From Cirrosporium novae-zelandiae (taxonomy: Eukaryota), in assembly GCA_026023565.1 (NCBI GenBank), contig JAPETS010000014.1:1-64000 (forward strand): a DNA stretch of 64,000 bases, read 5' to 3'. The position numbers and the translations under genes are program-made. Below are positions 21,446 to 56,726 of this stretch, in pieces. Under the pieces are notes generated by a model. It saw only the letters and a program-made list of their open reading frames with translations. It was not told where the DNA came from and made no database searches. Position 1 is the first letter of the stretch, and the number at the start of each line of letters is the position of its first letter.

Positions 21446-23059
21446 AACAAAAGCACAGAAGCTATGATAAATCCTAACTGAATCCTCTTTCCTCCTCCCT
21501 CCAATAGCGAAACGCTGACACGCACACTCCGAACCCAACGACCAGCTTTTATTTAACTTGTATGGGTACCTCTTATTAGCCAGGACAGTGGAAATTCCAA
21601 CAATGTCACCATCGTCTTGCTAGTGGAACGCATAGCTAAATGGTAACCCTCTTTTCAACTTGAGGGATTATCAGCATAATAATTTGCAATCATCCTCGTC
21701 TACTAGCTTAGAAAGTCTAAATACAGTTAAGATGTGCAGGAAATGACCTGGTTCCACCGGTGTGGATAAATGAGTCGTGGAATAGAAGGATGATAAAAAC
21801 TCTGACCGACAAGGGGTATTGATGCTTTTCTATAAAGTACTGGTAGATCCTCCTATTCGGTGCTTTCTCGAGATTGTGCCAACTCCGGAATAAGAGACGT
21901 AGGTACAATTACAATCAGCGGGATCATCCATCCCACCTATTTTCAAATCTTCATAGATTTTTTTCCTCTCTTCACTCTTCATACATTATTCACCCTTCAT
22001 GCAATTCTAAATTTTCGATATTCACCCCTTTCCAATAGTTCTAGACCTGTTATGCAAAAGAGTATTCACTTCCTACTGAACCAGCATTCCCCTTCCACGG
22101 TGCATTTAAGCAAGTCAATTTTCTTTCTTTTGGACTTCTCTCTGTATCTTCTTTCGCTTTCCCTCTTCATGGTAATCAGAATATAAATCCGCCACACTTT
22201 TCATAGTTATACCTTATTTAGTTCATGAATAATCGTAGCTGAACGATATTCATTTTATAAGCATTGTCATCGACGTCCTCGTTTTCGGGGTTATATAGAT
22301 AGGAACGAATCGTGTTATTTAGTGTTTGAGTGTGAGACACCGATCGGCTGCCTCTTATGTGCCCTTCGCTGTTACGGTTTGTTGTTATAGGCGTATTACG
22401 GTTATTTCTTTAACCGACTTGCGCCTAAAAAGCGCTTATTGTATTATTTAACTATACCTTTTTATAGTATTAATCATCATCTTGTTTTTACCCCACAATT
22501 GCCCCCCTAGGCGTACCATTCGCTATATTCAAGGGTGTAGTTTATTTCCTCGTTTTCCACTATGTTGTTATTTCATTAATACCTTATGGAGAAATAGAAG
22601 AACCACTTCTATTATTCAAAATGTTTTACTCACTATTAACTGTGAATCAGAGCCGTTGATTAAAAATAGAGATCGAAATATAACTTGTGTCTCGAGCAGC
22701 GACTCGATCAAGTGATACCAATCGGAAAGGCTTCAAAATATAAACATGTCTTTCTCCGATGTTGATGACGAAGACATTGATATTTCGTTTAAGGAACATA
22801 CCCCCTCTCGGAATGGAAGCTCGTGGCAGTAACTATTCAAAATGTATCTGAATACTCCGACGGACAGGTGGTCGTGCTTCTTTTCTTAGATGAGCGAAGG
22901 GCTACCGCAACCCAGTGCAATTATCAGACTACGATATATAAACCAAAATAATCACATCTAAGGATATATATTATAATCCCCTAACACCCTTTTGTTCTGA
23001 TAACTCCTAATAAAACCCCTTGAAATATTGAAAATTGCTCCTGTTTAAAATGAATATCA

Positions 23060-23520
23060 TGACACACAAACTACAGCAACAGTACGTCGGGCCTTTTCGA
23101 ATTATTGAGAGGGTAGGCAGGCTGGCTTATCGCCTCGACATCCAAACTACATGGCAAATACATAATATCTTCACAATAGCTCAACTAGAACCAGTTCCTC
23201 CGTCTTCGGCAGACTCATTTGAAAGAGTTAGACCTACACATCTCCTACCGGTTGAGCATGAGGGCAATGATGATGATGAGAGCAATGAAGATCTTATCCA
23301 TGGGGACTCGTAACAAAACTTCATTGATAACGACAAATTTGATATAGCTGACGTAAAGGGAGTGGTATAAGAAATTACGAATATGTGGCTAGAGATTGAA
23401 GATGTCGCTATAGACAGAATCTTAGCACTTAAGAAAGGGTTAATCGAAGCAAACATATTTCTGGAGTGTCGTTTGTTAAAGGGCTTCTCGCAGAAGGAAT
23501 GTTTCAACTCGTGACAACAC
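23060..23520 (+). mobile_element. Ty3/gypsy integrase C-terminal (SH3-like, possible chromodomain) relic
   Basis: HKLQQQYVGPFRIIERVGRLAYRLDIQTTWQIHNIFTIAQLEP is the GPF/Y module of gypsy integrases. It is followed by a decayed EIEDVAIDRIL segment. Confidence 0.85.
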
Positions 23521-26089
23521 AATGGACAGCCTTTACATCAACTAACGTAGCTAAACAATCAGTTCGACTACTGCTGAACAAGTGATGAGAGAGTCTCAAT
23601 CGAGGCCATCGATTTCAATATATCAGAAAGTATTGCTTCTAGGAGCCATCATCATGAATAAGTTAGTAGAGACGAGGGAAGCTGGGAAAGTTTTCAATAA
23701 AGAATTAGTGGTTTCAACTAGGGATTCAGCGCCGTAGCACACAAGAAGGACACAAGAGAATAACCGACAATAAAAGTGACGATGAAGAACAAAAATTATC
23801 TGAAAAGCACTATCTATTATCATACTACAAGAAGCACACCTATAGCAGATATAAGGGATATAAGCTGCCAGCTAGAGCTCAAATGACACACAAGTTGCAA
23901 CAACAATACGCGGGACTGTTCAGAATCATCGAAAGGATAGGCAGACTATTCATAGTTTTTATTACACAGCACCTAGGAACAATTTACAAAACCCCACCAA
24001 TGCTGATGCAAAAGTAGCATTTTCATTTGATTTCAAGCGAATTGGGGAATTCTTCGTACACAACATTTCGCAGCTGGCTGCCGCCCCCATCACAGTCAAC
24101 ATGCCATCGACGGTGACCTACCCCCTGCAGGGGCTAGATCACATCTAGCCATCGCAAAATGAAAAGATGTTATTAGAGAAGAAATATATCAAGGACAATC
24201 GTTCTCGAACAAAAGATAAGTGGATTATTTATTAGTTTAATACCTTGCCCCCCCCCCCCCCCCCATTCTGAATGTGACCAAGACATTTGCTACATGACAA
24301 ACAGATGCGAAACTATTACAACCCACTAAGAGGAGAGGAAGCTCTCTATGTATGGAGGTCGCGATAGCCTTGTCTAGTACCGGAATGCAACTTCGAAAGA
24401 AAATCCTTACCTCCCATCAATTAATGGTGAACTACTCCCCCCCCTCATTTCTACGCGCTACTTTGCTTCTACCACACTTTTGCACTCGTATAAACCCTAG
24501 AGTATACCTTCATCCTTAAACACTTTAGCCTTAGGCATCAAGCCTGCCCTCACCACACGTTTTCAGTAAAGAAGAGACTGACTAGCCTTACGAATATACC
24601 ATTCCTAACATGAAGCTTCAATGCCGCAAGGGTTGGCTTCTCGATCCTTTCTGCTGCTTGTTTTGCTTTGCTTTTGCTTGGTATTTGCTAACAGCTTTTT
24701 ACTTTAACCGTTAGATACCATTACAGTATCACTGAGCAAACCAAAGAAGCCCTCAATCGAACGTAAAGCAAATGCCTAACACGTTTTAGCAACCTCCAAG
24801 TATGCATCAGCACCAAACTCTTCACCTCATCCTACAACCACTTGATAAAACAACAGTAATGCAAAACTACCACCATACCTGCTACAAGGAGAAAGAACAA
24901 ACCAAAGACGGAAACGAAAAAAGCATGTAGAATAACACAAATAGGCCTAGAGGGCATGCAGTAATAAAAAATCAATCAAGTTCATTACTAGAAAATTATA
25001 CCAATACCAGCTCGAAAGGATTCCAAAATCAAAGTCTGTCCCCGAAAACCCTTTACACCCTCCAACGATCCCTAGCACTGCTTCTTTTTTTCTTTCTCTT
25101 CAGGTATCAGACCACGAGAGCCTGGTGGGTACCATAAATTATGTTTTTTTAGACAACATTCACCTGTTTTCAAATGCTGTACGACACACCACCCCCACCT
25201 ATCTTATTTTTTAGTGAAATTCGAGCCGGCACCGTACGCGACTCTCTCCATCCCCAACAACAAGTCGTAGAAAAGAAATAGAAATAACAAAAACAAATAC
25301 TAAAGAGATACCAGTGCCCACTGAAGGTTGGAGAACTTCTGGGGGTAATAGAAGAAGTTGACCTGCCTGGGGGTGACAAGGTTAGGCGCGTGGTAACATT
25401 ATTGATAGTGTAGTGCGGCACACAAGTTAATTGATGGGGACGAACAGTAGATAAGAACTATCATAATCATAATACCTAGGTATGGCGAATACTCTCAAAT
25501 CTCCATTGGGATGGGGATAGGAAGGAGGATAGATTAACTAGGCAAGATAACGGCTGGCTGGCCTAGTGATGGACTTGGATCCCAGGATGTAGGCAGGCAA
25601 TTAGGCAGGGGAGAAGTTACCTACCGCAGTGGATGATCTGATTGTCACATATGGGTGTTGAAGATGACGATAATGATGTGTTTATGTCCGGCGCTCTTGC
25701 TACTAATCTTCCCATGACTCTCCCCTCAATATAGGGGTCATGGAATTATAGAAAGATGTGAAGCTAGAGGTGGGTTAGATAATATAGAGGTATTGAAGAG
25801 GGAATTAATAGGATGGATAAATAATAGATATATATATACAAGATTGAAGGTTGACGTGATGGAGATCTACTGTAAAAAAAAAAAAGATAAGGTTTATTGT
25901 AGCCCATCTTCAAATTCAAAAAAAGCAAAGGAAAAAAGAAAAAGAAAATCCATCATCTAGATAGATAACCAACCAACATATTCCCATATCTAGCTATTGT
26001 GGATACATCGTAACTAAAATTATTATAACTCCCAACTCTTCCATCAAAGCTTAATAATCAATTTTCCCTTACTCTATTTCCAATGAAAC

Positions 26090-26189
26090 GGTCCTATAGT
26101 GTAGCGGTTAGCACATCGGATTCTGATTTTCTCTTCCTAGAAGTTTTCAGGGTTTTCCGGTAACCCCGGTTCGATTCCGGGTAGGACCT
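26090..26189 (+). tRNA. tRNA-Gln(CTG) with 28-nt intron (26127-26154)
   Basis: Acceptor stem GGTCCTA/TAGGACC, D arm GTGTAGCGGTTAGCAC and anticodon stem TCGGA/TCCGG with CTG at 26123-26125. T arm CCCGG-TTCGATT-CCGGG, followed by an oligo-T Pol III terminator. Confidence 0.95.
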
Positions 26190-27410
26190 CTTTTTTGGGT
26201 TTTTGGTTTATTGAAGTGATTTTTATTGATTTATTGATAAGAGAGAGAGGGAGAAAAGGGCTGTGAAGGGTATTTTTTTTTTTTTTTGGAGATGAGGTGG
26301 ATGGCTGTCTGTCTGTGTGTGTGTGTGTGTCTCTTGGGTGGTGGTTAATTAATTAATTAGAGAATTTTGGGAAGTTCAAATTCGAGTTGTGAAGTGCTTA
26401 AAGAAACACTAACTTAACGTTCCATCCAACATCCTAAAACAGAATTTCCAAAACCTAGCCATATATATATTAGAGCTTCTAATTACATACAGTAAGTACT
26501 ACAACTAGACTATACCGCAATAAACATCCCCCCCCCACCCCATCCCATAATTTAGATTTACACCTAGTCTAGATATTTCACATGTAATATCTTCTTCATC
26601 TGCATGACATGGTTGCATATTACATTAAGGGGATATGAGCGGGTATGGGGGAGCGCATAAATACAAACAGCCTAGTCTAGTCTTACCCAAAACCCTAGTT
26701 CCTATCATCATCCTAGCCCGAATCTCTTTTTTTTCCGAGGGGAAGAAGAAGTTATCAGAAGTTATCAATCAATTATTCCAAATTATTAAATTAGCAGAAG
26801 CAAATGTGTGATGATGATGATGATGATGGCAAACGTATCGAAACGTACGTACATGTACAGTACATTGGTTTATCTATCTATCTATCTATCTAAAAGGAGA
26901 TGAGTTAGGTTGTATTTAAATGAATGGCTCGAGAGAGCCCTTTTGTTCTCCTAGATTGGGTATTTATGGTGGTGGTGGTGGGATAATGGATATAGGGGAA
27001 TATGTTATGTGAGGATTGTTGGGGGTTTGGATGTAGTGTATCTGTTGATGGATGTGTAGGTATAGGTAAGGAATGATGAGAGGGGGGGGGATGTTTAATT
27101 ATAGAATGGAGACTGTTTATTGTTGTGATTACTGCAGATGCTGTTATTAAATTGCTGTTTTTCTTGCTTAATTGAGCTTAGTGGATAATAATGATGGTAA
27201 TGATAGATTTAAATGGGTCTGTTTCCGAATGAATGCGGAGTGAGTGAGTGGCATTACAGAGAATGAACAACAATGAATTAAAAGGGGGAAGGGGGTAATA
27301 ATTCAGATGGATTTGCCCTAGCTAGCTACTGCCGCCGGCTACCAAAAAATATCTTCCCGAGGCACTAATATATAGAGTATATTTCGACTTCTTTAAGTCC
27401 TAAGTACCTT

Positions 27411-28060
27411 TCAAAGCATATTCATGAGATTGTCACTGGCGTTACGCTCCTCGCATTCTTCATCGGTATCGTACCATCCGTATAACTCAGGATCACAGTA
27501 GTATCCTGGGGTACGGGGACGCATCCTTTTGTGCTGGGCTTCCAGTACTGCACCGTTGTCCATCAGTATCAATGCTTTCCTACCATGCTGCTGCTGCTGT
27601 TACTTACCCATTTCTTCCAATTCCCAAATTCGAGCTCAGTTTTTATGGCTTCTCTAGGTATACGATACAATATGAGGTATTCATCTTCTGAGTTTGTCGG
27701 AGAGATCCCCAAAGACGTGATCAAGTCTTGAAGTCAGAAAACGTATTCCTACTACAGCCTTGTGGTATCAATTTCGTATATAGAAATTTGCGATTCGCTT
27801 CTCAGTCGACAAGCCCAATTTAGAGCATGCTGCCTATTGTCAAATACAGAAAGAAAGCAACTCGGTCGGCGGCTTCTCCAATTCAAATGATGTTCAACGG
27901 CCTGCTTTAATCCCTCTGAGGTACGGAGCGTGCAGCTATCACTCGCTAAAAGGTCTCCACTGTCATCCTCTTGGGCTTTGGACCCCCCGTGGTTGACTTT
28001 CCAAAGACATGGGGGGAGAAACTTGCAATGAAAGCTGTCAAAAATATTTGAGCTCTGCAT
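27411..28060 (-). pseudogene. ADP-ribosyltransferase-fold (DUF7587-like) gene disrupted by three in-frame stops and a probable frameshift
   Basis: Reads LWKVNH..HLNWRSRRPSCFLSVFDNRQHALNWA..IYEIDTTRL**EYVF*LQDL..SEDEYLILYRIPREAI, with stops at 27754-52, 27751-49 and 27736-34. A GTAAGT..CAG intron leads to an acidic tail, YGWYDTDEECEERN. Confidence 0.7.
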
Positions 28061-28510
28061 TCTTTAGCAATAATTTGCAGAGTTTGAGAGCAGACGAACT
28101 GTGGGTTATCTGATAAGAAGATAGAAATGATGGATGTCTTTAGCGAGGCGGGGTAGCACGTAGGCTATGCTATCATTTGGATGCCGTCAGCAGAACAGAC
28201 GCCTATTCGGCCAACGACACTAATATCAATCATGGCTACTTGATAGGAGACATCATGATTTTCAGCTGGTCCTTCTCACAAAGTATTGCCATGCAAACAC
28301 AATGCCACCCGTACCACCAGCCTTACCGTTACCGAGCCTTGGAGAAAATCGTGGCAGTGTTGGGGCTCACGCAACTGGCAAAAGGTTGCGGCTGGCGGGC
28401 AGGGAAAACCTCCAAAGTATTTTCGACGTCAAAAGCCTTTTTTTGGCACTCGGTGTAATTTGTTGAAGGCTTCCCTTGGACTTCGGTCAATGAAATGGTA
28501 AACTAAAACA

Positions 28511-31012
28511 ATGGATTCTACAACCGTCGTTCGAGACTTTGCCAATACAGCTCCAAGTCGCGCTCCAGCAAAGGCCATACTGGAAGAGCTGTGGGACTCG
28601 CCTCCAGCCAAAGCCTTCCAGCAAAATACAACAACCTCATTTGAGAACAAACGCCCGTCTACCCTCTTTGCAGATTGCAGTATGTCATTTGCAATCGACA
28701 TTTCTCAGAGCACGAAAGGCCGTATTCTCGCTGAAGAATGTGCTTTTATCCAGAATTTTGCGGCTGGCCTGTCTCCAGGGGCAAAAGATGTTGTGCGGGT
28801 GATGCCCTGGGATGAGATATCTCATAAAATCATCACGGTTGAAGAGCTTAATAAGATTGACCCGGGAGGGAGAACCGACCCCAACGTTCTTTTGCGAAAT
28901 AGGGAATATATCGATTTGCTTCAGGACAGTCAATTATGGTTCCTCTTGACAGATGGACAAATTTTTCCAAATGTTGTTCGAACATTTGCTCTTAATGTCA
29001 ATTCTCGAAGTCTGCACGGAACAGCTTGTGTGCTGGTTATTTTTGGTAAACGCCCCGCGAAACCAATCCTGTGTAATGTGTCTGTTGGAATCTCGGTTTT
29101 TGCTGTCACGCCTAATTGCATATTCGTATTCCACGATGTCGATACGCATATTGGATATGTTCTTCAATGCAAAGGCTGCTTCAGTACCTTACTCTCCTTA
29201 GGCGTAGAACAGGTCAGGCTGGATAGTACCACCGAATGGTACAATATTCCCAAGCTGAACTATCCTGATCTCTTCGACATCCAAGTCCCAGCTCCAACAA
29301 GGCTGGACATAAACCAGTTCCAGTTACAAAGTGGACGAAAGATTAATCTCGATGATCTTTACCGGGGAAAGGTTAGCAGAGAAATTGAAGAGGAAATATT
29401 GCGCAACGATGACGATCTTAAGTCCGTGATTTTGACTGCCACGACTCGAGGCCAAAATCGAGATATCCATGACTGGGTTTCCGCTCGCCGAGATGGTCTC
29501 CTGGATCTTATTGAAATGCCAAGGCCAGACATAAATGGAACAGCTGCTACACTCATTAAGGTGTCCATTCAAGCTTTGCAGAGAAAGGATACATATGCCA
29601 ATAAGATTGATCTCCACAATATTGCCCTTCAGAAAGCCCATTCGTTAAATTGGAAGACATTTAGAGACTCTATTGAGCCACGAAGACAACAAGCCACCCA
29701 AAGAACTTTGGTAGTCGATGATGTTTTAACTAGGTTAGCCCTAATCAAACAAGCAGGGCTTTCCAGTGCAGAGTGTATAAGTCCTGTATCGCCCGGCGGA
29801 CAGCAGTGGGTAGCTAGATCTCGGAGGACGGATCAAGGGCCAATATCGAAGCTGCTGTCTGTTAGGGGTTATCTTGTGGATGGTTTTGGCACCCTAAAAA
29901 GACCGGTTCCTAGCTGCCAGATCTGCGGAAGCACTCAGCCCTACTTCGCATTGATTCTAAAAAGTCCTCCTGAAGGAGAGCATACACCAGGTTTTCCCCC
30001 CACGGAAAGTCGGTCCGAAATCTTGTATCCATTTGCAATTCAGAATTTTCCAGAAACAGACATATTATCACGACTTGTGTGCTGCGCCGCTTGTTCGGTG
30101 CCGGCCGTTGAATATGGTCACTCCCCTTATCACGAATGTCTTGTTGGAGCACTGGTCTTCGGCGACCGCCTTTCGGGCGCCAATGACATCAATAAAAGGA
30201 CCTGGATTGCCAATCTCGATAAGGCTCTCGATGGAAGGTTTACACAAGAATGCCTTCTCCCAATAGTACTGGCCATTATGTACAACGCAAAAGATCACGT
30301 TTCTTCCACTGACACGGTCTTTGCAAATGCCCTGGACAATGCATGCACCATTTTGCAAGATGGGCTCCAGATTCCCTACGAAAATGGCAATCATCATTGG
30401 ACTGGACGCATTAGCGACGTAGTCTTGCATTATCTCTCGATAGGCATCGCCAGCCCCGGATGCGATTTTCTCAACCATCCTATTAACTCTTTTGTCTTGA
30501 TGATTCGAGTCGCTGCGAATATTAGCAAGGAGAAACGAGCCATAGCACTATTTTATCGCTTACTCCTCCATATCATTGAGCACAGTTATACTCAACAAGA
30601 CACTGAGGATGATGTGACCGCAGCTGAATTTTATGGCCTTTTACGGTCTCGAATATCTAGAGGCGGTAGTTCCGAGGAGGAGACTACCACCATTTCACTA
30701 AACGATTCTTTAGACTGGAGTCTTTCCAGCTCACCTAGACTGCTGGAAACGCTGTGCGATAATCATTCAATGGATAACGAGGCTTTGAGAGTTTTTAGAA
30801 GAGCTGGAGATATTTTTAGCATCATCGAAATACAATGTGGGACAGCCATCTGTTTATTCATATGCCTGTTCCATGCAGTGAATACAGGCGTGAAAGAACC
30901 TCGGGAGCTTTTGTGTTGGTTTTGTACGAGGCCCGAAATGAACAACTTCTTCCTCGTACCTTGGAGTATACACGATACCGAGAGCAAGACAATCTGGGAG
31001 AGTTTAACATGA
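28511..31012 (+). CDS. 833-aa vWA (MIDAS) domain protein with downstream Cys clusters
   Basis: Intronless ORF. MIDAS motif FAIDISQST (DxSxS), GGRTDP (T) and WFLLTDG (D). CQICG and CCAAC are putative Zn ligands. Confidence 0.8.
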   Translation: MDSTTVVRDFANTAPSRAPAKAILEELWDSPPAKAFQQNTTTSFENKRPSTLFADCSMSFAIDISQSTKGRILAEECAFIQNFAAGLSPGAKDVVRVMPWDEISHKIITVEELNKIDPGGRTDPNVLLRNREYIDLLQDSQLWFLLTDGQIFPNVVRTFALNVNSRSLHGTACVLVIFGKRPAKPILCNVSVGISVFAVTPNCIFVFHDVDTHIGYVLQCKGCFSTLLSLGVEQVRLDSTTEWYNIPKLNYPDLFDIQVPAPTRLDINQFQLQSGRKINLDDLYRGKVSREIEEEILRNDDDLKSVILTATTRGQNRDIHDWVSARRDGLLDLIEMPRPDINGTAATLIKVSIQALQRKDTYANKIDLHNIALQKAHSLNWKTFRDSIEPRRQQATQRTLVVDDVLTRLALIKQAGLSSAECISPVSPGGQQWVARSRRTDQGPISKLLSVRGYLVDGFGTLKRPVPSCQICGSTQPYFALILKSPPEGEHTPGFPPTESRSEILYPFAIQNFPETDILSRLVCCAACSVPAVEYGHSPYHECLVGALVFGDRLSGANDINKRTWIANLDKALDGRFTQECLLPIVLAIMYNAKDHVSSTDTVFANALDNACTILQDGLQIPYENGNHHWTGRISDVVLHYLSIGIASPGCDFLNHPINSFVLMIRVAANISKEKRAIALFYRLLLHIIEHSYTQQDTEDDVTAAEFYGLLRSRISRGGSSEEETTTISLNDSLDWSLSSSPRLLETLCDNHSMDNEALRVFRRAGDIFSIIEIQCGTAICLFICLFHAVNTGVKEPRELLCWFCTRPEMNNFFLVPWSIHDTESKTIWESLT

Positions 31013-31098
31013 TGGGACAGCATAATATCATTCTAAGTCGGCTCCTGAAATCATTGATTGATGGACACGGTAATAAGTCTTTAATTATAGTTTCCACT

Positions 31099-33180
31099 TT
31101 ATAGAAGTCCTTCCCTCTTTTTCTGAGCTTGTTCTCTGTGTCTCCAATAGAAATAGAATGCAAAGGCAATGATTGTGGAAGGAATGGTACATATAAGCCA
31201 AATCCAGCACTTTTGAGGGTTGTCGAGATAGCCCGTTGTGCTGAAAAAAGGCATGGAGAAGAATGTCTACGGGCTGATAAGCTTCACACGTAACTTGAAG
31301 GTCATAAATGTCATCTTACTGCAAATGAAGTACCGGGAAGGAAGAACATTGTCGTGACAGCAATCTATCTCATATCAGTCAATGAAGCAACTTAGCCTTT
31401 ATCCAGGCACTGACCGTCCTCATTGCAACACTATCCTGCCTCATTTCTTTAGATAGTTTTACCGACTGCTCAGCAATTTCCTTCGAGCTTTTGGCTTCGT
31501 CTTGTGTCGCAAGAAGGATTGCGTGTATTTTTTCTCCATTCGCAACCATTCCTCTATCATTAGCTATCTGGATGCAATTGAAAAGCTAGCAGTGGGTCAA
31601 TCATTAATTTTCGTATTCAAACCTAATAGAAATATTCAAGACTTCTCATCTTGCTATATTGGAGATGATTGGGTAGAGGAAATTGCACGACAAGGGGGGA
31701 AATGGTACCGACTTACAAGTGCAAGGTTATTCTGCACCTTGTCCATCAACTCCTGCAAGAAGGCCCTAATCTGCTTTAAATGCGATGCGATATGTTCAAG
31801 ATCATCAGACATAGTTCCAAACTTCTCCTGAGAACATTTCTGGAGGCAATTCATTCCAGTATACTTCTGGTGACGCTTGATAATATCCAGCAAAGTTTCC
31901 TGCATCGATTCCAGCTCTGTATTATACCGGTGGAGGTGCGCAGCGACGGCGTGAAGTGCTCTGTTGAGTGTCCCGAAAGCATTTGGCTGGGTATCGGTGT
32001 CAATTGCTTCTTGCAATCGCCGTTCCTCCAAATCCATGATAGTCAGATCAATTCAGTTCACTATTGCTCGAGGCAGAAATTTTAGGAACTAACATATGCC
32101 ATCAATTGCTCATTGACACTATCGAGCGCGTTTGTCCACCATCTAAGGGCACTTGTGAAATATATGCAATGAATATCAAAGGGTCGATCAGCTGGTTCTG
32201 ATCTTGCGCTGGTATTCCAAGACTCTTTGATCCTTTTCTTCGGTTCCAATGCAGACTTACTCCATCTCCCGTCCATGAAATTAACAACCACTGTAACCAT
32301 TGATTTCCCACCAGAGCTGTACCTACAGAATACCGCAATCCGACTGCCACGAATATCAAGACCAACATCAGAGAGATGTAATAGGTAGTGGAAAGGATTC
32401 ATTTGATTGCTGCTGGCTGTACTTCCTATGTGTTCTTTGGCTTTGTCGTTACATTTGTATTGGATGCGTAGTGGGAGGAAGTACCATAGTTCATGGATGA
32501 TATCGTCTCTGCGGAGACTATCAAATGTGAAAAATCCTCTCCCGCATGGCAGATGGTACCGGGACAACGCGTAGAGAAAAGCCGCAGGTAAACGCAAGTT
32601 AGAGATCAAATCTCGAAAGGCTTGGCTCGAAATTCTGAGCTTAGATGAATCATGAGGTATCGGTAAACGTTTTGAATGCACTAGAAATCGGTTTATCAGG
32701 CTGTGAGAAGTTAATATGCCTCAGTAAAGAGGAGTAATTGCCAATTTACAAGATCTGATACCCTTCAGCATTGACGCCAACAGACTGGCTTTGATTTTAG
32801 CTCTTCGTAACCTATTTTTTCTTCTTAAGAAGTTCGTTAGAAGTTATACACACCTCAGTTGCTGTTTTGAGATGTTCGTAATCCAGAGTCGCTTCTGAGG
32901 TTTCTACAGAAATTCTAAACATCTGATTACTGTAATCTTGGCGGGCAATCGGTTCCAAGTACCTTTTCCACTACTGAAGTTTGCACTCATCGAGGATACA
33001 GCGGTTTCATCTGACAAGGTATTTGCTTCAAATTCCTTTAGCGCATTATGCGTCTCTTGTATATTGTTGCTGTAAGATCATTTAGACACGACACAGTCCA
33101 AATAGCATTAACATAACTTACAAGGCCGATATGGAATTTGTAGAGTTGAAAAGCCGTTCTTGATTGATGTCTCCTGCCAT
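31099..33180 (-). CDS. Multi-exon CorA-like (Mg2+ transporter superfamily-related) protein with C-terminal 2TM hairpin
   Basis: ATG at 33180 and several GT-AG introns; internal exons match track ORFs 32082-32681 and 31654-32037. The spliced C-terminus is EMRQDSVAMRT|IAVTTMFFLPGTSFA|TFFSMPFF..CWIWLICTIPSTIIAFAFYFYWRHR..GLL* (TAA at 31101-31099). The 5' exon boundaries are uncertain. Confidence 0.75.
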
Positions 33181-33509
33181 GACAATATTTATTTCCCGTG
33201 AGGGTATTATGAGAACGGGGAAAATGTTCGTAATATAACTGAACGAATTGTGTCTAGGCCTAACTTCAGAGAGGTTTAGGCTCTCTGTGCGTTCAGGTAG
33301 TCAGCCTGCGCTTTTGTCCCCCCCTGTTGCCACCACACATGCAGCTGGATGCTGTAAACTCAGCCACAACCACGTACAGCCAAAGACAAATAAAATCAAG
33401 TCATGAGAATGCTGGAGTCATATTCTCCATTCTTCACGACTCGATTGAACCTGTTGAATAATCTACCATTTCATTACGTTCGAATGGATCTTGAGCTGGA
33501 ACCTACATA

Positions 33510-34331
33510 ATGGTTGCAGGTCTTCCCAAACGCATGGCATTTTTCCCCTCAAGTTGGATCCTATCGACGGGAGAATCTAGGACCCTCGAGGGGGATACGC
33601 AACAAAAGTCTGAGAATGGTACGACAATTGCATCTGGTGGCCTACAGTCAGAAAATACCAGGTTAACATAACTAGGTTCTGTTGCAATTCCACAAGCGGC
33701 CGAACAGCCCCCGGAGAGAATTAGGGAGAGCGTACCTCCCGCAGTGTCATTTCTCAATCAAGCCGACCTAGCAAATCATACCGGTGTTCCCAGCGGTGCG
33801 AGTCGGAGAAAAGAGAAGATAGTAAACGTTGATACAAGCAACCAGGACAAGCACAGTCAGGGGCCAATTTCCATTCCCTCGACTAAAGTTGTGAATAATC
33901 GTCCTGCTGCGCAAATGCGTGGCATCGGCACAGTTATGAAGAAATTTTTCACCAATTCCAAAGCGGACAGAGGCAAATCTCTCGACGCAACGAAGTTTAG
34001 CCCTGAACGAGTGGAAGGACCACGAAAAGCATTCCAGTGGCCTGAACACTTGGCTCCTTCTTCACAGGATTCTTTACAAGATTCATCACAGGCCATTTCA
34101 CGCATGGACCAGGCGACTGTAGCCTCATCAAATCAATTGACGTCAGACACTTTGAAAGCAGTTGCAGAACTTTCTCCGTCGAACCACAACTATATGCCAT
34201 ACAGAATACCGGCGTTACGCTCAGGCACCCCTTTAACAGGAGGTACGGGGATATCATCGACAAGCTCAAGCTATGCAGATGTGCCGTCAAGGCTACCTCG
34301 ATTTTCACCAGGCTACTCGCCTATGTCATAA
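33510..34331 (+). pseudogene. Ser/Pro-rich disordered ORF interrupted by one in-frame TAA
   Basis: ATG at 33510 is in frame with track ORF 33744-34331. The only interruption is TAA at 33669-33671. Confidence 0.45.
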
Positions 34332-34900
34332 TCATTTAAAAAAGTTTTCAAACGGTAGGAAGGCGGACAACAGAATCGATTTTGGGGATCAGCGGTTTGA
34401 TATTAATAACATAATGCAGTAAAGTGAAATAATGTTTATTTGGGATTTGTGGTTTGAACGTTATGAACGATGTATAAAATATCAGGAGCAGATTGGTGGT
34501 CATTGATTGGAACAGTGGAGATGGAGAGGGGTTCCTAACGTTCAAGCTACCTTTAAAAGCTTAATAACGATATCTTTAATATAATTTACTACTGATAATT
34601 AACAAGTTACGACTGGGGACAACTTTTCCTCAATTGAAAGGGACTTGATTGTTGTTCGTCGCCCCTCGTTCCATTTAACTTAGGGCTCTATCCAGTTTAT
34701 ATAGACTTTAAACACGAGCAGCTCAAAATTTTTTGGAAGTTTTTAATGCCTTTTCTATTCTGTTCTGATCGGTGTCTAGTACATGTACAGCGCAATAGCG
34801 TAAATAATGGATATCTATTTATAATTGACGGTATCAATATTCTTTTAATTCAACCATCAGAGAAAGCACCGTCTTCCATAGTTTCCCCACCAAGTACGAA

Positions 34901-37900
34901 TTAACCCCATGTTCCGCCACCACCACCCCTTCCTTGTCTTTTCTGTGCCGACAATCTCCAATCATCCTCTCCAGCAAACCGGTTATGCAAAGGCTGTATC
35001 CTCTCGGCTTTCTTCCTCTTGCTCAGCTTGTCTGTTGGTGCGACCTTGAAAAATGTTGGCGCTGCTGCAACAAGCCATTTCGGCTCTATGGCTGTCGTGC
35101 AATGCATATACTCTTTCGTTGTCATCACCAAGGTATGGAATATAACATGTTCGGCTGGCTTGCCAAAAAGAGCTGAACTAGGGTGCAGGTACACGGGTGT
35201 TCCTTCAGTCAAGGTCTTATAACCCTCTTGTGGGTCTTTCCGAGCAGAGTTCCGGAAGAAGCCTGAGCAAAGTGCTTGTCGGACTTTGGTAGTGTTGCGA
35301 CCACAGGAAACAATGGAATGTTTATAGCGTTCCATGATTCCTAGCAATTGCGTCCGTACGTCTTGTGCACGTTTCATCTGCCGAGCTTGGATGAAGTTTT
35401 CATAGCACCACGGATTTGAGAAATGAGACTTCTTCCATCCATTATAGACATTAAGGAGGGTTAGATGATCTCCCGTGGGGTCATGGAATTTGGATTTCTT
35501 TTGATCTGCTTGCTGCTGTTTATCCTTGGGGCGGTAGAAGACAGTTTGGACAGACAACATTGCAACAATACTAAGCATTTCATCAGAGCAAGTCATGTCT
35601 ACTGATGCAATGAGGACCTTTGATAGTGCAGGCTCCATAGGAAAATCAGCCATTTTACGACCCAGACGGGTCAGGAGACCTTCATCATCAAGCGCGGAAA
35701 GAGCGTAAAGCTCTTCGAGGGCTGTAAGCATAGTGTTTGTCGGTGGCGGATCCATAAAGTCGAAATGAAGAAGATCATTGATTCCCATGGCTTTGAGCAT
35801 AAGAATTGTGTGAGAAAGGTTTTGTCGCTGAATCTCGGGAATGGTTGTGGGCAGCATCTCGGATTGATAGGCAGCTTCGGTGTACAAACGGAAACATTTT
35901 CCTGGCCCTGTTCTCCCTGCTCTGCCCGCCCTTTGCTTGGCTTGGGCCTGACTGATTGGGGTTACCTAGAAAAGTGGGTTAGTTTGATATTCAAAATGCG
36001 TTGACTTTGAGAAAGAGAATACTTACAACTAGAGAGTCCATTCCAAGCTTTGGGTCGTAGGCATTTTGTTTAACAAAGCCAGGGTCGATTACGTAGTAGA
36101 TTCCGTCGATTGTGATGGAGGTTTCAGCAATATTTGTAGCTAGAACAACCTTTCTGCTTCCTGGAGGTGTGGGTTCGAAGATACGACTCTGCATTTCACT
36201 GGGAAGGGCAGAGTAGACAGGTAAAATGATCAGTTCTGGAACATTAGGCCCAAGCCCCTTCATCCTCTCGTACAAAATCTCACAAGCGTTTTCGATTTCT
36301 TCTTGACCAGTCAAGAAAAGTAGAATATCACCCGGTGGCTCAGTGAGATGGATCTGCATAACTGTGATAAGTGCAGCGTCCATGTAGTCGGATTCCGGTT
36401 CCCTGGAGTACATAACTTCGACAGGAAATGTTCGTCCGGGGATTGTGAAGATAGGACATTTGTTGAAATACTCAGAAAACTTCTCAGCATCCAAAGTGGC
36501 TGAAGTCACAATCACCTTTAAGTCGGGTCTTCTTATTACAGTCTTCTTTAGCAAGCCGAAGAGAATGTCTGTTGAAATTGTTCTCTCGTGCGCCTCGTCC
36601 AACATAATGACGCTATATCGGCGTAGATCAGGATCGATCAGTACTTCACGTTGAAGCATTCCGTCTGTCATATACTTGATTTTTGTCTGGGGACTCGTGC
36701 AGTCTTCAAAACGGATAGTATATCCGACCTCTTGACCTAGCTGGCATCCCACTTCCTCTGCCACTCGTTTAGCCACGCTCATAGCTGCCACACGCCTAGG
36801 CTGAGTACATCCGATAATTCCTGCATTCCCATATCCACTTTCGGCCAAATACTGCGTCACTTGGGTTGTTTTACCACTTCCCGTCTCCCCAATCAAGACG
36901 AGGAGTTGATGTTCAGCTACAGCTTCCATGAGAGCCTTTCGAAACTTGAAAATTGGTAAACCTTCCCTTTGATCCTTAATCGACAAGGACGTCCGCTTGC
37001 CGAAGGATTGATTCTTATTTTGGACGACTCGTTTCCATTCAGGAACTTGATCGGTACTATTCATCTTAGCCGTTCGTAGATCAGAGGCAAACTTCCTTTC
37101 GGGAGCTAAAGGATCCTGCCATTGAGCAGTAAGGTCAACCTGAGCAGCCTCCTCGGCGGCTTTGTCTTGCGCCTCTTGCTGCTTTCGGTCACGGCGCTCC
37201 TTAGCAATCTGTGTTCCTGACATCGCAGCTCTGTTAAGAGATCCATCTGGTGCTTTAACAACACGAATGGGTGACAATTCGAGAGATTGTTTTGTTTGGC
37301 CAGCCAAGAATGGAGGTTCATCTTCTCGTACTTCAATATCAATATCTTCTTCTTGTTCGAATTCTCCCTCTCCATTGAGTGTCGCATTGTATTCTTCATC
37401 GACATCAGGATAATCCGCAGCAGATATTACACCAGAAGCTATAAGTTGCCTAATCTCCCATCTTTCAGGTGACGTCATGCGTTTCCTGGTACCTCGCCTC
37501 CCATTCATATCTCCTTCGATGACCGGAATATGGGAGCTGAGATTACCATAACGTTCATGTCCATTTCTTAGGCTATCCTGGTTCTCAATATTCGCCCCTG
37601 ATGCTATTCGTCTTGAAGGGACCAGGTCTCGACCGGTGATTTGATCAACTTCTTTCATAGAAAGGCCGATACGGCTGCCCTTAATAGTAGCAACCTTGAC
37701 TTTCACAGGTTGCCCTATGGAGACAAGATCGGAAGGATGATTCACTCTAGCCCCCTCCTGCATAGCAGAAACATGCACGAGACCATCAACTTTACCCTTG
37801 ACACCTCGTAGATTGACAAAGGCACCAAAATCTTTGATGCCGGTAACAACACCGTCGTAGATCTTGTAGATAACCGGCTGATCGTCCAAGACTTCCCTTG

Positions 37901-38513
37901 GCCCTCTCCTCTCATCATAGAGACTTTCAGAAGATCGCCGCCTCTTACGACCACTAGAATGTCGCGGCTCCGGACTTCGACCTCTTTTATGGCCATTCGA
38001 ATAATTTCTTGGTTCCGGACTCCGGCTCCTTTTGCGTGTAGTCTCCTTGTGCTTTCCAGCCAGTCCTTCAAGCATAGCAAATGTATCATCCAGCTCACCC
38101 AAACCTGCACTATTCTTGTTTATTTCTGCTTCATCTCCATCGTCCCATTTTGGCGCTTTGTCAGGCAAAGCTAGCCCCTTGAATATCCTCGTCTTCCTCT
38201 CAACATCATCGATCTGCTCCTCGTGGTTTGCCTTGCCATTTTCATTTTCGCGACTGTTGGCTTGTGATTTGCGTTTAGGGTGCATAGCAAGGACTAAGCG
38301 GTCGATGCTTTCGACGAGGGTTTGAGGGAAATCGGCGCCCGTCGCATCGAGCGCTTTTTTGAAATCGCCAAAGGACTCGCATTTTGAATGCTGGTCGATG
38401 ACGAACTCGGCGACGGTTTTATCGTTGATGCCTAGATGGTTGGATATTTCAGAGGTCACCTTGGAGACTAGGGAGAGGAATTCGAGCTTCTCGAATTCGT
38501 CAAATTCGTCCAT
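34901..38513 (-). CDS. PRP22: Pre-mRNA splicing factor DEAH-box RNA helicase Prp22 (DHX8)
   Basis: Exons 38513-36027 and 35965-34901, with a 61-nt intron GTAAGT..CTAAC..TAG. Contains an S1 domain (GIKDFGAFV), [27 protein letters not shown] and QRAGRAGR. Confidence 0.97.
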
Positions 38514-39158
38514 GATGCTTCGTTTGTAGATGACACCTCCGGGGAGGTTTCTAGTATGGAAATCGTCGGAGGCGACTGTACTCAATACGAAGGTTGGAAA
38601 ATAAAGTTGCGGGAACACTAAGCCCAATACGACTAGTGCCAGAGAGTATCCTTGACGCCTAAGGCATCAACGACTCAACTTCACTCGAGATTCTATCAGC
38701 CGAACTCGTTTGCCCAACTAAAGAATTTTCTCCTCCGCATCTATACAACTCTACAATCCTGATGACCACTGACAACCAACCTTGAAATTTTCAGGTGTAT
38801 AGACAAGTCGGCGATATAAACTATAAAATGAATTATCATCATCAACAGGTCGGCAAGAAAGCTATCCTATATATTTAGATTTTGAAATAAAATTTCTATA
38901 TTGTAGGTGCAGCTGTGAAATTTTAGTAGCAATTGAGGTGCATGTTCTTTTTCCTTGACCTGCGCTCTATCTACTTCTATTTAATATTCTATCGCGTAAC
39001 AAGTTGACAGCTCTTGTTACCATTAATACTGCCTTATATGTTGATAAATGCATCAAGCAGCATGATCTTCAGCTTCCATCCTTCCCACAACACTAATCAG
39101 ACCTATTACTAAGGTATAAAACTCTCAATACCACTACCTAAGCTGTCACTTTTACAGC

Positions 39159-39600
39159 TACTCTCAGATCCAGATCTACTTTCCTGGAAACACAGGTGCT
39201 GCGGTCATTAAGAGAGAGGTGTACATGGTGGATGACTTGAAGGCAAACCTTCTTCTGGGTATGGATATACTTGGACCAGAAAAAATTTCGGTTGATCTCA
39301 CCCACCGGCTAGCCATCATCTATTCATAGCAGAGTATTCATGGCAAAGTGGCTATCGACATCCATAGACTGAATAAAATTTTCGAGCCAAATGTTTACCC
39401 TTGCCGCATAGTGTAAGAGATGCGCAAACTGTTAACTACTAGGGCCATTAAGATCAACGAAAGGACGACTTCCAATCTTTATGTTACAGCCCGTGACTTG
39501 CTGGGTATTGATTATATCGGACCGTTCCTACCAATTGCGAAATCGGGAGCAAGGTACATAGTGATCGCTATAGATTACTTCTCAAAATTTATTTAGGCTT
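39159..39600 (+). mobile_element. Ty3/gypsy pol relic: aspartic protease C-terminal half close to integrase N-terminus/core
   Basis: REVYMVDDLKANLLLGMDILGPEKISVDL (retropepsin), then CKRCANC (Zn finger) and DLLGIDYIGPF..SGARYIVIAIDYFSKFI*A (integrase core). Contains stops and frameshifts. Confidence 0.85.
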
Positions 39601-40538
39601 AGAAGTGCCTATGCCGTGTCGCTTTCAACACCCTCTACCACTACCTATTACTTTCACAACCCAACAACTTTCTTAGCTATCAATGCAAGCTCAACCTTCA
39701 TTTCTACTATATCGCTATCAAGCTAGCTACAAAAGAGGCAACCACCCACAAGGGTTAACACTCCTTTTGCCTTGAAGTCAGGCCCCTACCTTACCCCTCT
39801 CTCTTTCTCTCAGGCTTATCTACGAGTGAACGAATCCTTTTTATCTATAACGAAGCCATTTTCACCTATGCCCTAACAGAACAAACATTGGATATCGACC
39901 GTACAGTACTTAACAATGACACCTACGACACCCTCCATCCAAACAATCATTTGTTGAAAGCTAGACACAACCCAACCAACTATTCCAAAAAAATCCACTT
40001 TCGTCTTTGTTCTAAGAAGATTCTTATAAAATACAAAAGATACTGCTAGAAGCTCTCTGTTTAAAACTTGTTGTATCCGTCATTTTACCGAAAAGGGTTG
40101 TTGAAACCTTTTTATCTCATTAACTATCTTTCAAGCGAACGAACCCAAAAGGTGAGGGCTTTGTCTATATAGAACCCTTTCGGTTTCAGCTTCCCTAATA
40201 GATAGATATATCACGCGCGTACTCCTTCCTGCTACCACCATCCCCCAATCCCCCCCACTCTCTCCACAATACACAAATACCTTCTCAATACACAACACCC
40301 CACCACCACATCCCCACAGCATCCACTTTCATTTTCAAGGAACCGTACATTACATAATCATCCTAAAGCTATTAAAGGGGGCAGGGGATGAAAAGAAAAT
40401 TAGAAATTCAAAAATTATGGCTATGGAAAATATTTACAAAATAATCTAAGATTTATATAACGATTTCAACGAAGAATAGATGATTTATAGGATTATCATT
40501 AACTTCCCAAAAACCGATATATTTTCTTCTTCAGATCT

Positions 40539-43817: not shown

Positions 43818-44307
43818 CTTATCAGGACAATGAATGGATTAATTGGGTAATTACAAAAAAAGATGAAATAGAGCGGTCCGTGGCCTCATGCCCAGAGTCT
43901 TATGTAGACTTGGCGGAGCTTGAAACTTGATGGATTATTGATAAATGATTTGATATCTGTAGGGTCGTTGATAAGAAGAAGTTGATGGAATTTCGACCCA
44001 TTTCTGGTAACAAGAGTACAGTCGATGCCGAACGGTAACACCTTTGATTGGCCATCTAATCAGCAATCTGGGTCTAAATTGTGGATCCAGATGTTTGGCG
44101 GCTTCTGGTGGCTTTGGGTGACTTTTTGGCCACACCCACTTGTGGGGCAAACCAGGGACCAGCAAATCCAATCTTCATATCAAATTTCCTCCAAATACTT
44201 GAGTATAAATCAACAATAGCCTACCTTCACTTGACCTGGTTCTAAATCGGTCAATCAAGGGTGAAGAACAGAAAATAGCTGGGGTTATGATAAGTATCCG
44301 GGATAAC
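43818..44307. promoter_or_regulatory. Cluster of GATA sites upstream of the ammonium transporter (putative AreA/NIT2 sites)
   Basis: CTTATC at 43818, GATAAA at 43940, GATAAG at 43970, GATAAG at 44289 and GATAAC at 44302. MEP genes are established targets of nitrogen GATA factors. Confidence 0.55.
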
Positions 44308-44429
44308 CGACCGGGCTGACTCGCATCAACACAAGACATCGTAAATAAAACACGCCAAGGAATCCTCAGGCCCATTTGAAAGTTAAACCGCCATTAAGCA
44401 ATTAATGTCTTAGTATATCATACAACATG

Positions 44430-46956
44430 TTACAGCCGCGACTGTGTTTGCAGCGCTTTTCGCCTTCTCTTTTGCGGCGGTGATGGTACAGGTTTCTCCT
44501 CTATTGGAGAAGTAGCTGCCTCAGCAAAAAGATGCCGGCCAACTCGGTCTGCAAGTCTCAGTACACGCGAACTTACCGTGGCACCATCTCGACGGTTTTT
44601 GCTGGCCAAACTTAGCGAGAAAAATATAATCAATATAGAAAATAACTTACCCTTCTCTTCTGGATTGAGCAATTCGTTCGGTGAAATCCCACAGCTTGCC
44701 CTCTGCGATTATCCTCCCGTCTTCTCCCCTCTTTGGAATCCACTCCGAAGCCAGTTTGATGGTGGTTGGGGCTTTGATGGTCTTCGCCTGGGCCACAATT
44801 ACCATACTCTCTTCGATGAATCTATATTAAATATTGTTAGCCCCTCTTAACATGCGAAAAAAGGCTATGGTGTTAATCAGAACTTACCGTTGGTATGCAT
44901 TCTTGAGAGTTTCAGAATTAACTGCTTCAAAATAGGATACATCTCCTTGATGATACAATGTCTTCCCTAGAAGCTGAGAGGTAGCCTGTACAGTCTTGTT
45001 ATCAAGCCATTTTTCCGCATCTTCAGGTGTTGGAGGAGTAAGAGTGAAGAGGGATACTGTTCCAAGCCAAGACGCTTCAATAAATGGCCAGACCAGGAAG
45101 CAGTAAAAATCGTAGTTCTCTCTGCCTCTGGCACGCTCTTCATCACTGAGGTCTACTGATCCGATAGCGCCATTATGATCATAATTCAACTTCACCACTT
45201 TATCTCTTTCAAGGCCCTTGAGTGTATTCTCAAGATTAGCAGCCAATCCAGCTGATGGGAATATGAACTCGTTGCGTAATAGCTGTGAGAGGAAATAGCT
45301 TTGATCATAAAGTGCCTCATAAGACATTTCCTGATTAGGTCCACCCTGCTTAACCTTTGTGTAGAGAGCAGTCGAGACAACAGCTTCGGAGACAAACAAG
45401 TGGATGCATGCATTGCGGTAGAAGCTGAGCTGGAAGCGGTCCACAGCGTAAAACGTTTCTTCGGCCAGATCTGGAATTCTACCGACCAAACTGGGTCCAA
45501 GTACTTCGATGGCCCTGGTCACCACAGCATCGGTTGGTAGACCTCCAAAATGTGCGACTCGACCACCTTTGGACTTGATACGTTCACTCAACCAATCGAC
45601 CCTCCGATCAAGTTCGCTTCTCCCGACACCACGTCCACGTAATGTAAGCAGCACAGTACCAACGAGTGCGGTGGGCATGACTACGGCTACTGAATTTATA
45701 TCAGCTAGCACTCTGTACCCAAGGGTTGTGAGAAGACGAGTTCCGCTAGGGTCTGCACGAGACTTGGTTGCTTTCTGCGGATTATTGCTCATGCGTTGTT
45801 GCTCGCGATCAATGAAAGATTTTAGACTCCACGGCTCATGGAAACGGACATCCACACGACCTAATTTGAGAGACAAGACCGAAGAGGCAGAAAGAAAATC
45901 TCGAAGGTTCTCTTTCTGTTTCGGTTGGCCAAGGAGCTCATTAACATAGCCATCTACCTCAATAACTTTGTCGTATTGGGTTGAAACAGGACAAAAGTAG
46001 ACATCGTTAACACGGCCAGACAGTACGCTGTCAAGAATAAATCCAATAATCCCAAACTTCGGTCCCAATAACTTTCCTGTCCTTGATCGACCCCCTTCAA
46101 TGAAGCATTCTATATTATAGCCATTTTGTAGTATGGTATCAACGTAGCTTTGCACCAACGTATGGTACAGAGCATCGTTCCCAAAACTTCGCCTTATCCA
46201 CATGGCCCCAGCGTGCTGCAGAAACGGACCGACGAGAGGAAATCGTAAATTATCACCAGCGACCACGACGGGCAACCCAATCCCAAGCCGGTACATGATA
46301 ATCTGGAGACTAACATAGTCCACATGTGATCTATGTGATGGTAAAAAAACAATGGAAGTTTTTGTCTTTGCAGCTTGTTCAGCAACTGCTCTCAAACGAA
46401 GAATTTCCTCGCTGTTGACATGGATGCCTTGATGATAAGCCCGACAAAGCAACTGCGTGCACATATAAAAGGCTGATCTGATAAATGCCTTGCTTTCCAT
46501 TTTACAAATCATGTCATCTGTCATTTTCTCAACGAGCTCTTGTAAACTCTGTTCTATTTCTCTCTTTCTTTTATCCCTCTTTTTCTCAAAGCCACTATTT
46601 TTGGGACCTAGCATACCAGAATTCCCCTCTGTTTCAACTCTTCGTTCAGCCAAATATTGGATCTTTTCTTTGAGCATTGGAGTTGCCATAACCATGTTCT
46701 TCATTCTTTCCGAGTATCCAGCGTAAAAGATTGGTTGCCCCACGACATTCTCATAAGCTCGCCATCCGGTTCCTGAAACATAAAGACTGACGTCACGGAG
46801 GAATTCAAAGGGCGATTGACGAAATCGAGCGCCGTCGACCAGACTCCGCTCGGAGGAGTCATCGTGGGGCTTTTCCGTGAATCCTGGAGGATGGATAGTA
46901 ACTTGTGATCCAAAGATTTCAAGGTCCGGTGCGGTGGGAGTATCAGTGGATGGCAT
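44430..46956 (-). CDS. Glycerol-3-phosphate/dihydroxyacetone-phosphate acyltransferase (GNPAT/PlsB-like) with PTS1
   Basis: Exons 46956-44888, 44821-44651 and 44601-44430. Motifs FLPSHRSHVDY (HxxxxD), GAMWIRR and FIEGGRSRTGK. The spliced C-terminus ends QSRL*. Confidence 0.9.
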
Positions 46957-47619
46957 GGTGAACTTGATGCCTGCAGATAAATAAGTCTACCAGCACCCAG
47001 ATGAAGCACTCGGTTAAAATGAGATATTTTGTGGCTATCGTACTCCCATATTGAACCAGTATATAGAAATGAGTAAGGATATTATCTCCCTTGCTGGGTA
47101 TTAGATTTGATTGGACTTTAGGAGTTGCTAGCTGCCATCAACAAAGCCGACGGCTTTACCCCACACTTCACTAATGCTTTAGCCCCTTGGCCCGAACTCT
47201 TGAGGCTTCGATTAAATGCTTCCCAGCCCAACAGTGCCAATTTCACTCTTGCCAATGGCTACAGCATTAATACTCGAAGTACAGACTCTTACTAGGAAAA
47301 TTAATTGTATTAGTCTAGTGACTAGTTGATAATATCTAGTTGCGTGACAGCACAAGGTGCTAGTTTTATGTATCTTTAAGATGTTGTATGGAAGCTTCAT
47401 CCAAACACCCTCGCTATTCAGGTACAAGAATAAAATATATAAAAAGAATATTATAGAAAATCGATAGGAAATGCCAAAGCTTTCGAGTGATATCGATATA
47501 GTCCCTTACCAACCCTGTATCAATCTATGAAATGTCTGGGCCATATCCAATCATTTCCAGAGAACAATCGTTGTGAGGTAATGTCATAAAAAGATCGGCT
47601 CCTTCCCACCTGTCTAACA

Positions 47620-56352: not shown

Positions 56353-56611
56353 CTACAACTCCGATATCGAGTTAGCATCCATCATGCTAGCCGGAGAGGA
56401 ATACCTCGAAGAATCTCACACTCGTAGAATAAGTACCTACTTTAACCAAATTAACATCAGTGATGCTTACAGCGTGAATTCACAGTAAGCTAGGGTATGA
56501 AGAGTAGTATTTCTATATGCGCAAAGCGCATGAACAAAGATTTTGAGATTTTAGGGATGCGTCGTAAATTCTGCGATTGTACTAAGTATTATTGGTACTT
56601 AAGTAACAAAA

Positions 56612-56726
56612 ACGCGTTCTATCTCGACCATTTGCATCCAGGAGGCCGTCAAACAAAATGGGGTATAAAGTAGAGAGAAGTCGTCGATTTAAATCGACCT
56701 TCATGTATATCATGTCGAGGACGCGT
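56612..56726. promoter_or_regulatory. Two MCB-like ACGCGT sites and a 16-bp palindrome in the GCP4/UBA1 divergent promoter
   Basis: ACGCGT at 56612 and 56721; GTCGATTTAAATCGAC at 56683-56698. Confidence 0.4.

Follow-up and report, generated by a model that had tools for sequence, protein, structure and literature searches.

A linked vWA/zinc, CorA-fold and disordered-protein gene trio in Cirrosporium novae-zelandiae and distant fungi, with a possible role in conflict or regulated cell death

Bacterial type III CRISPR systems include a CorA-family effector. In fungi, clusters of two to three genes and trans-species alleles are hallmarks of regulated cell death (RCD) and heterokaryon incompatibility (het) genes, among them het-S/nwd2, gasdermin-protease and HELLP/PNT1, according to PMC12881547. 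A CorA-like candidate, mimpvic32, with divergent alleles, has been placed at a mapped vegetative-incompatibility region of Morchella importuna (PMC8940278). The stretch analysed here, referred to as the window, comprises 64,000 nucleotides of Cirrosporium novae-zelandiae (positions 1 to 64,000 of contig JAPETS010000014.1) and was found to carry three adjacent genes encoding a vWA/zinc protein (vWA/Zn), a CorA-fold membrane protein and a disordered protein, here designated X. These three genes form a unit that is co-inherited across distant fungi. An earlier note, made from the letters of the window, had described a four-gene conflict or allorecognition module that also took in an ADP-ribosyltransferase (ART)-like gene and might be cargo of a large element; the linked trio was recovered, the ART-like gene and the element were not, and the evidence on function is circumstantial.

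The layout of the trio is that of the fungal two- to three-gene death clusters, and Pfam listed no death or sensor domain of a known kind for its three proteins. Resemblance to these RCD/het clusters, as covered in the same source, extends to the clustering of two to three genes, a putative membrane effector and patchy occurrence, and trans-species alleles are possible in the family of the window, split vWA alleles having been seen in one of the two sets of near relatives compared. It differs in that the putative effector has a CorA fold and the putative sensor is a vWA/Zn protein. With the CorA/Mrs2/Alr1/ZntB proteins (2-TM-GxN, TM being a transmembrane segment) the second gene shares, as judged from the model of a homologue, the whole soluble domain and the stalk helix and, probably, C-terminal membrane segments, whereas in its family GxN is replaced by SMP, AMP, ALP or AIP and the partners, vWA/Zn and X, are fixed. 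The bacterial CRISPR effector is similar in using the CorA fold as a putative defence pore; unlike it, the family of the window is eukaryotic, has protein partners and comes without CRISPR or a second-messenger synthase. No description of a vWA-CorA-X cluster was found in the literature searched, in which coverage of subscription journals was thin. The trio is read here, tentatively and at somewhat under an even chance, as a fungal conflict or RCD cassette in which vWA/Zn would be the sensor, X the adaptor and the CorA-fold protein the pore.

Linkage was observed among annotated genomes and in metagenomes; below, G000 denotes the host genome, C35 the contig of the window, L-numbers metagenome loci, and P0026 and P0039 database proteins. 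In Oculimacula the best matches of vWA, CorA and X bear consecutive locus tags (16514, 16515 and 16516). In Hyaloscypha CorA (006177) and X (006178) are consecutive, and the vWA search gave no match from this genus, while in Leptodontidium X (KAH6703104.1) and vWA (KAH6703106.1) are two accessions apart and the CorA match is on a contig of equal length. The metagenome scan for vWA relatives gave 122 pattern matches, reduced to 28 loci, linkage being counted from the vWA side. A CorA-like gene, detected by CorA profile search, adjoins vWA in 16 of the 28, equal to eight lineages whose vWA proteins are 29–39% identical to that of the window, and it is present in 15 of 16 loci longer than 10 kb with a vWA match at E<1e-40. 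The CorA-bearing loci display four gene orders, and an S/P/T/Q-rich open reading frame (ORF), assigned to X, stands head-to-head with CorA in all eight lineages. Neighbours other than these three change between loci, the flanks often containing transporters and metabolic genes. Because the trio stays linked across changing flanks and gene orders, a functional cassette is supported; neither of the outcomes named in the earlier note as contrary to its proposal, unlinked homologues or plain syntenic orthologues, describes vWA, CorA-like and X. Occurrence is patchy, with 23 relatives of vWA and 14 of CorA. Among the 12 loci in which CorA was missed, L035, L038, L042, L046 and L047 are all ≤4 kb, L031, L043 and L049 have short flanks, and L045, L048 and L050 carry a distant vWA subfamily; L044 is considered below.

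Between lineages, X proteins can be aligned only at a motif, Y-x3-hydrophobic-P-x2-W, and the profile of the Helotiales-type X gave no match to X ORFs of other lineages in the 28 loci. The motif pattern was drawn from the metagenome X ORFs, before phmmer returned the Helotiales-type X proteins. It has 16 matches in the 28 loci, all within X ORFs (0–4 in 20 shuffles), and occurs in 5/5 of the Helotiales-type X proteins checked, found later; X of L036 is without the strict motif. Kinship of X across lineages is thus suggested by position, composition and motif only. Short ORFs with an X-like Y..PW string were also noted upstream of vWA at L044:8296-8849 and are perhaps a remnant.

The vWA-MIDAS/Zn gene (28511..31012, forward strand; MIDAS, metal ion-dependent adhesion site) is intact and encodes 833 amino acids (aa) in a single exon, as judged from the ORF, the alignment of homologues and a structure model. 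The protein consists of the vWA-MIDAS domain, a helical linker, a Cys cluster, an ETD motif and a C-terminal helical domain. Mean pLDDT (predicted local distance difference test) of the model is 83.5 over the whole protein, and structure comparison of the model disclosed a vWA fold at residues about 50–261 (Z 13.9; root-mean-square deviation, rmsd, 2.8; 161 aligned). The metal ligands of MIDAS are DxSxS, a T and a D; the letters here are DISQST...T122...LTDG, and in 22 aligned sequences S65, S67, T122 and D148 are invariant and D63 is kept in at least 90%. Invariant in the same sequences are C469/C472, C524/C525/C528 and the ETD motif. The protein has no Pfam match, and for residues 440–833 no family was found (none in Pfam, no usable match in Atlas).

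Among BFVD models, giant viruses supplied the best long structural matches to the vWA/Zn model, with E-values from 3e-21 to 6e-16, including proteins of Hyperionvirus (E 3e-21) and Satyrvirus (E 3e-20), and weaker matches came from baculovirus proteins, namely granulovirus ORF4 (E 3e-7) and 94K-N (E 5e-4); TM-scores by query are ≤0.43 and identity is 10–17%, with both sides predicted. The literature found gives no function for the giant-virus vWA or the 94K/ORF4-like proteins, and in viral contigs none of 64 pattern matches was a vWA relative. Two further forms of the vWA/Zn protein were seen. The distant subfamily (L045:9336-11492, L048:9791-12946 and L050:4660-6342) sits amid MOR2/PAG1, Anp1, RNase PH and Arc1, with no CorA, and is probably a vertically kept relative of the putative module sensor, and a second copy in the host, decayed by stops and frameshifts, lies at G000:C13:21991-23844 (L051, L052).

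The gene for the CorA-fold membrane protein (31099..33180, reverse strand) was modelled with nine exons and 516 aa on its homologue P0026, to which the product is 68% identical over 512 aa. The model of P0026 contains the CorA soluble domain and the long stalk helix; it matched Thermotoga maritima CorA (5jrw) with Z 20.1 and rmsd 3.9 over 307 residues at 10% identity (Foldseek E 4e-9). The protein falls below the Pfam CorA cut-off. In its C-terminus one segment exceeds hydropathy 1.5 (starts at 480–483), and model pLDDT is <50 at 444–477. The GMN signature after TM1 is replaced by SMP, and in the subfamily alignment the GxN position reads SMP, AMP, ALP or AIP in all 12 readable rows of 24; the single GMN string of the protein, at residue 343, sits in the soluble part. 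The protein thus has the CorA fold and, its signature being replaced, is not a member of the Mg2+-selective family. The frame is free of stops provided that intron 5 (32026..32093, reverse strand, in the gene model) takes a non-canonical GAG acceptor, and the contig of the read run described below, which is not independent, has the same letters. The gene may therefore be weakened through a weak or damaged splice site, as far as can be judged from the sequence. Thus, of the central pair that the earlier note considered largely intact, vWA is intact and the CorA-like gene is open only if the GAG acceptor is used.

Many fungal "CorA-like" genes have been annotated as magnesium transporters without test, and a physiological or developmental complex has to be weighed here, in which a CorA channel not selective for Mg would work with a vWA protein as its regulator and a disordered adaptor, the three genes staying linked for co-regulation; its use could lie in the homeostasis of ions or metals, in repairing membranes or in the handling of septal pores. 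The full CorA fold is in keeping with it, as are purifying selection on the CorA exon among close relatives (ratio of nonsynonymous to synonymous substitution, dN/dS, about 0.14–0.34), the frequent transporters in the flanks, the distant vWA subfamily amid housekeeping genes without CorA, and the CorA-like expansion of Endocarpon, which the authors of PMC3897900 interpreted as Mg transport. Yet GMN is absent in every member with a readable TM1 end, and patchiness, changing flanks, the decayed vWA copy of the host and split vWA alleles would be unusual for core physiology, so that this explanation appears fairly unlikely, if still a serious contender.

The third gene, X (33510..34331, forward strand; exons 33510-33618 and 33676-34331), encodes an intact, disordered, S/P/T/Q-rich protein of 254 aa. 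Its apparent stop falls inside a canonical 57-nt GT-AG intron (33619-33675), and the spliced product equals P0039 letter for letter, so that X as a pseudogene was ruled out. Both outer genes had been thought to be undergoing inactivation, which is true of the leftmost one, described below, and not of X. With phmmer X had seven homologues at E<=0.001, with short conserved blocks along the disordered chain; near its N-terminus it carries a degenerate form of the motif (Y absent), and a C-terminal stretch is conserved. The tight head-to-head CorA-X pair in 8/8 lineages, the disorder and fast evolution of X (dN/dS about 0.55–0.6 against L030) and the likely movement between classes would also suit a selfish unit of the spore-killer or addiction-module kind, in which the channel would be the poison, X the antidote and vWA an activator, and drive would keep the linkage. 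Recent drivers usually do without three-gene linkage over very long divergence or free allele exchange. A long-lived three-gene linkage together with free exchange of vWA alleles is atypical of them, and such a unit is considered improbable.

If the trio is instead a conflict or cell-death cassette, the CorA-fold protein, without the Mg2+-selecting GMN, would oligomerise into a membrane channel and act as the effector, by ion leak and depolarisation. X would be co-expressed with it from a shared head-to-head promoter and would bind the channel or the sensor via its short Y...P..W motifs, either keeping the channel shut or relaying a signal. The vWA/Zn protein would be the sensor or switch, with its ligand bound through the intact MIDAS, and the polymorphic, exchangeable part, while the cassette as a whole would undergo gain and loss and probably transfer from one lineage to another. 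In its strongest form, a GMN-less CorA-fold cell-death or immune pore, gated via X by a polymorphic vWA/Zn sensor with structural kin in giant viruses and baculoviruses and moving between classes, would be a new class of effector in eukaryotic innate immunity and a parallel to the CorA effectors of bacterial defence, which is possible but doubtful. A CorA subfamily without GMN that has kept two fixed partners over long divergence is a defined, testable system. Killing on nonself or parasite cues would mean new types of pore and sensor in fungal immunity and a link to the bacterial CorA effectors; if there is no killing, the trio would still be an undescribed channel-regulator complex.

The pattern of alleles was compared in two groups of close relatives. 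In the syntenic loci L024, L029 and L030, vWA places L024 with L030 (389 sites, against 60 for L024 with L029). The other pairing, L024 with L029, prevails in CorA, by 31 sites against 7, and in X, by 114 against 14. Likewise, dS between L024 and L029 is 0.44 for vWA vs 0.035 for CorA. Across separate assemblies L024 equals L025 and L029 agrees with L027 and L028, while L030 is a single sighting; the GH20 gene, whose dS for L024 against L030 is at saturation (2.3), was not relied on. The allele divergence whose examination had been advised was thus seen as split vWA alleles in one of the two groups and was missing from the other. In addition, L027 carries an insert of 216 bp in the interval from X to vWA (L027:4581-4796), with an 81% match to L024 892-1106, located exactly where identity to L024 falls from ~95% to ~80%.

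Known conflict genes occur near some copies. The CorA-less vWA copy of L043 lies ~2 kb from a gasdermin-like gene (HET-Q1 match, E 1.9e-5), the flanks of this locus being the gasdermin-like gene (L043:2-856) and an S/P-rich ORF truncated where the contig stops (L043:7779-8570). Near the decayed copy at G000:C13 are a HET-domain gene, at ~0.9 kb, and an ankyrin gene, at ~6 kb, with no match to CorA or X within 17 kb, and L023 carries a NACHT-ankyrin gene. This proximity is a modest signal.

Several points weigh against a conflict or cell-death role. Known conflict genes are near 3 of about 13 independent contexts, and most flanks are transporters or metabolic genes. Pfam listed for vWA, CorA-like and X no domain known from cell death or defence; no NACHT/NB-ARC, HeLo, HET, gasdermin, protease or amyloid motif was found in the three proteins, and PADLOC matched only the two homologues of CorA, weakly (E 5e-4 at best). 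The vWA discordance comes from one metagenome trio and could be explained by introgression, gene conversion or chimeric assembly; L023, L026 and L037 are without discordance, at 98–100% identity in all three genes, and X and vWA are not matched as alleles in L024, L029 and L030. L044 is a true exception to the linkage, since CorA is missing although 10 kb of sequence flanks vWA to either side. Tree distances of vWA and CorA correlate (rho 0.84, 13 pairs), and among kin such a correlation means co-inheritance, not co-evolution. Lastly, mimpvic32, a CorA-like fungal gene with divergent alleles, differs in encoding 765–773 aa, is a mapped candidate only, and is likened to the CorA gene of the trio by annotation; the words "vWA" and "Willebrand" are absent from the three supplements of the Morchella paper (PMC8940278).

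As for the origin of the trio, the class of the host is neither Leotiomycetes nor Lecanoromycetes, and in trees the Helotiales copies are the sisters of both genes of the window, vWA (100/99) and CorA (100/100). A clade of the vWA of the window with the Heterodermia group, which we take to be the closer neighbour of the host in the species tree and which was chosen for the approximately unbiased (AU) test after the first tree, was rejected (p-AU 3e-5). The CorA path from the window to Hyaloscypha is 0.57, vs about 0.60 between Hyaloscypha and Oculimacula. Judging from these trees, an old transfer of the module is plausible and is favoured; differential loss of paralogues is possible as an alternative, since the copies of the window are sister to those of Helotiales and not nested among them. 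Recent transfer recognisable by composition was rejected, GC content at third codon positions (GC3) being 0.43–0.44 in the module vs 0.41–0.48 in host genes. Between 25500 and 35200 only chance-level repeats were found in the search for terminal repeats or a target-site duplication, and of at least 17 matches to the DUF3435 captain in G000 none is on C35 or C47, the contig beginning 27 kb left of the module, so that a captain may still lie beyond that end. A mobile or horizontally moved cassette is accordingly plausible from the trees, while no element ends were seen; the proposal of cargo in a large element was not supported, with no terminal repeats, no DUF3435 on the contig and host-like GC3. 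Stop-free DUF3435 genes of the Starship captain type were observed at G000:C48:170034-171413 and C90:51540-53010.

Passive co-carriage, in which unrelated genes would travel as a block in mobile elements, would be compatible with the lineage-specific flanks, with the sister position of the window and Helotiales copies and with DUF3435 captains elsewhere in G000. The same three partners recur in four gene orders at about 30% identity while other neighbours change, and element ends were not found, both of which make it distinctly improbable.

The leftmost coding unit, the "ART-like" gene (27569..28060, reverse strand), lies outside the conserved unit and was assigned by Pfam to DUF7587 (E 3e-19), and PDB sequence searches gave no ART match. 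It is a pseudogene with three in-frame stops within the domain (27754-27749 and 27736-27734); five in-frame GT-AG spans cover the stops, and 0/5 keep the aligned core whole. An R-S-E triad is the mark of R-S-E ADP-ribosyltransferases. In the DUF7587 copies of G000, S and E are invariant (4/4), and the first-strand R is present in the three paralogues and not in the copy of the window. These three paralogues are intact and lie elsewhere in G000, C35/C47 duplicates being counted once (C44:97610-98035, C35:80259-80678 and C35:332087-332455), one of them in a 1245-aa open frame. No close relatives of the gene were found among 39 candidates. The linkage of vWA, CorA-like and ART-like genes expected in the earlier note held for vWA and CorA, with X added, and failed for the ART-like gene, which adjoins the module in 0/28 metagenome loci; Pfam found DUF7587 in 0/110 neighbour ORFs from 12 of the 28. 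As a pseudogene with these counts it was rejected as a module member and is a bystander. A version of four genes, whose effector would be an ADP-ribosyltransferase toxin, could appeal to the invariant S and E, to the head-to-head position of the DUF7587 gene and vWA, and to a very weak DUF7587-like score (independent E-value, iE, 0.13) upstream of the decayed C13 copy. Against it stand the counts above, the broken frame and the want of close relatives, and it is highly improbable.

The ORF scan of the window placed four coding units between an intron-bearing tRNA-Gln(CTG) on the left (26090..26190, forward strand) and a housekeeping DEAH helicase on the right (34901..38666, reverse strand, the outer coordinate being stop-to-stop), the latter with the Pfam domains S1, DEAD, Helicase_C, HA2 and OB and presumably of the PRP22 type. 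Both neighbours had been pointed out in the earlier note, and its spacings were confirmed. Between the DUF7587 frame and the start of vWA, which diverge, lie 448 bp (28063 vs 28511), the stops of vWA and the CorA-like gene are convergent with 86 bp (31012 vs 31099), and the starts of the CorA-like gene and X are divergent with 329 bp (33180 vs 33510). This last spacer (33181..33509), part of the layout seen in 8/8 CorA-bearing metagenome lineages, is likely a shared promoter of the two genes. The DNA is poor in microsatellites, as claimed (in the window scan 28001-40000 scores 0 bases, against 175 for 26001-28000); since the housekeeping stretches 44001-50000 and 54001-62000 also score 0, this scarcity denotes gene-dense DNA and is not the mark of an island.

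A contig from the probable source read run, which is not independent, equals the window over 26900-36000 with 0 differences, and because it agrees, the odd letters (GAG acceptor, stops) are not assembly slips of the window. C35 and C47 of G000 hold the same region at the same coordinates, with one difference in the 17 kb compared, and are either a second haplotype or an assembly duplicate. Left of the tRNA, remains of a long terminal repeat (LTR) retrotransposon were observed as two Tf2-type SH3 fragments (window 23032-24017).

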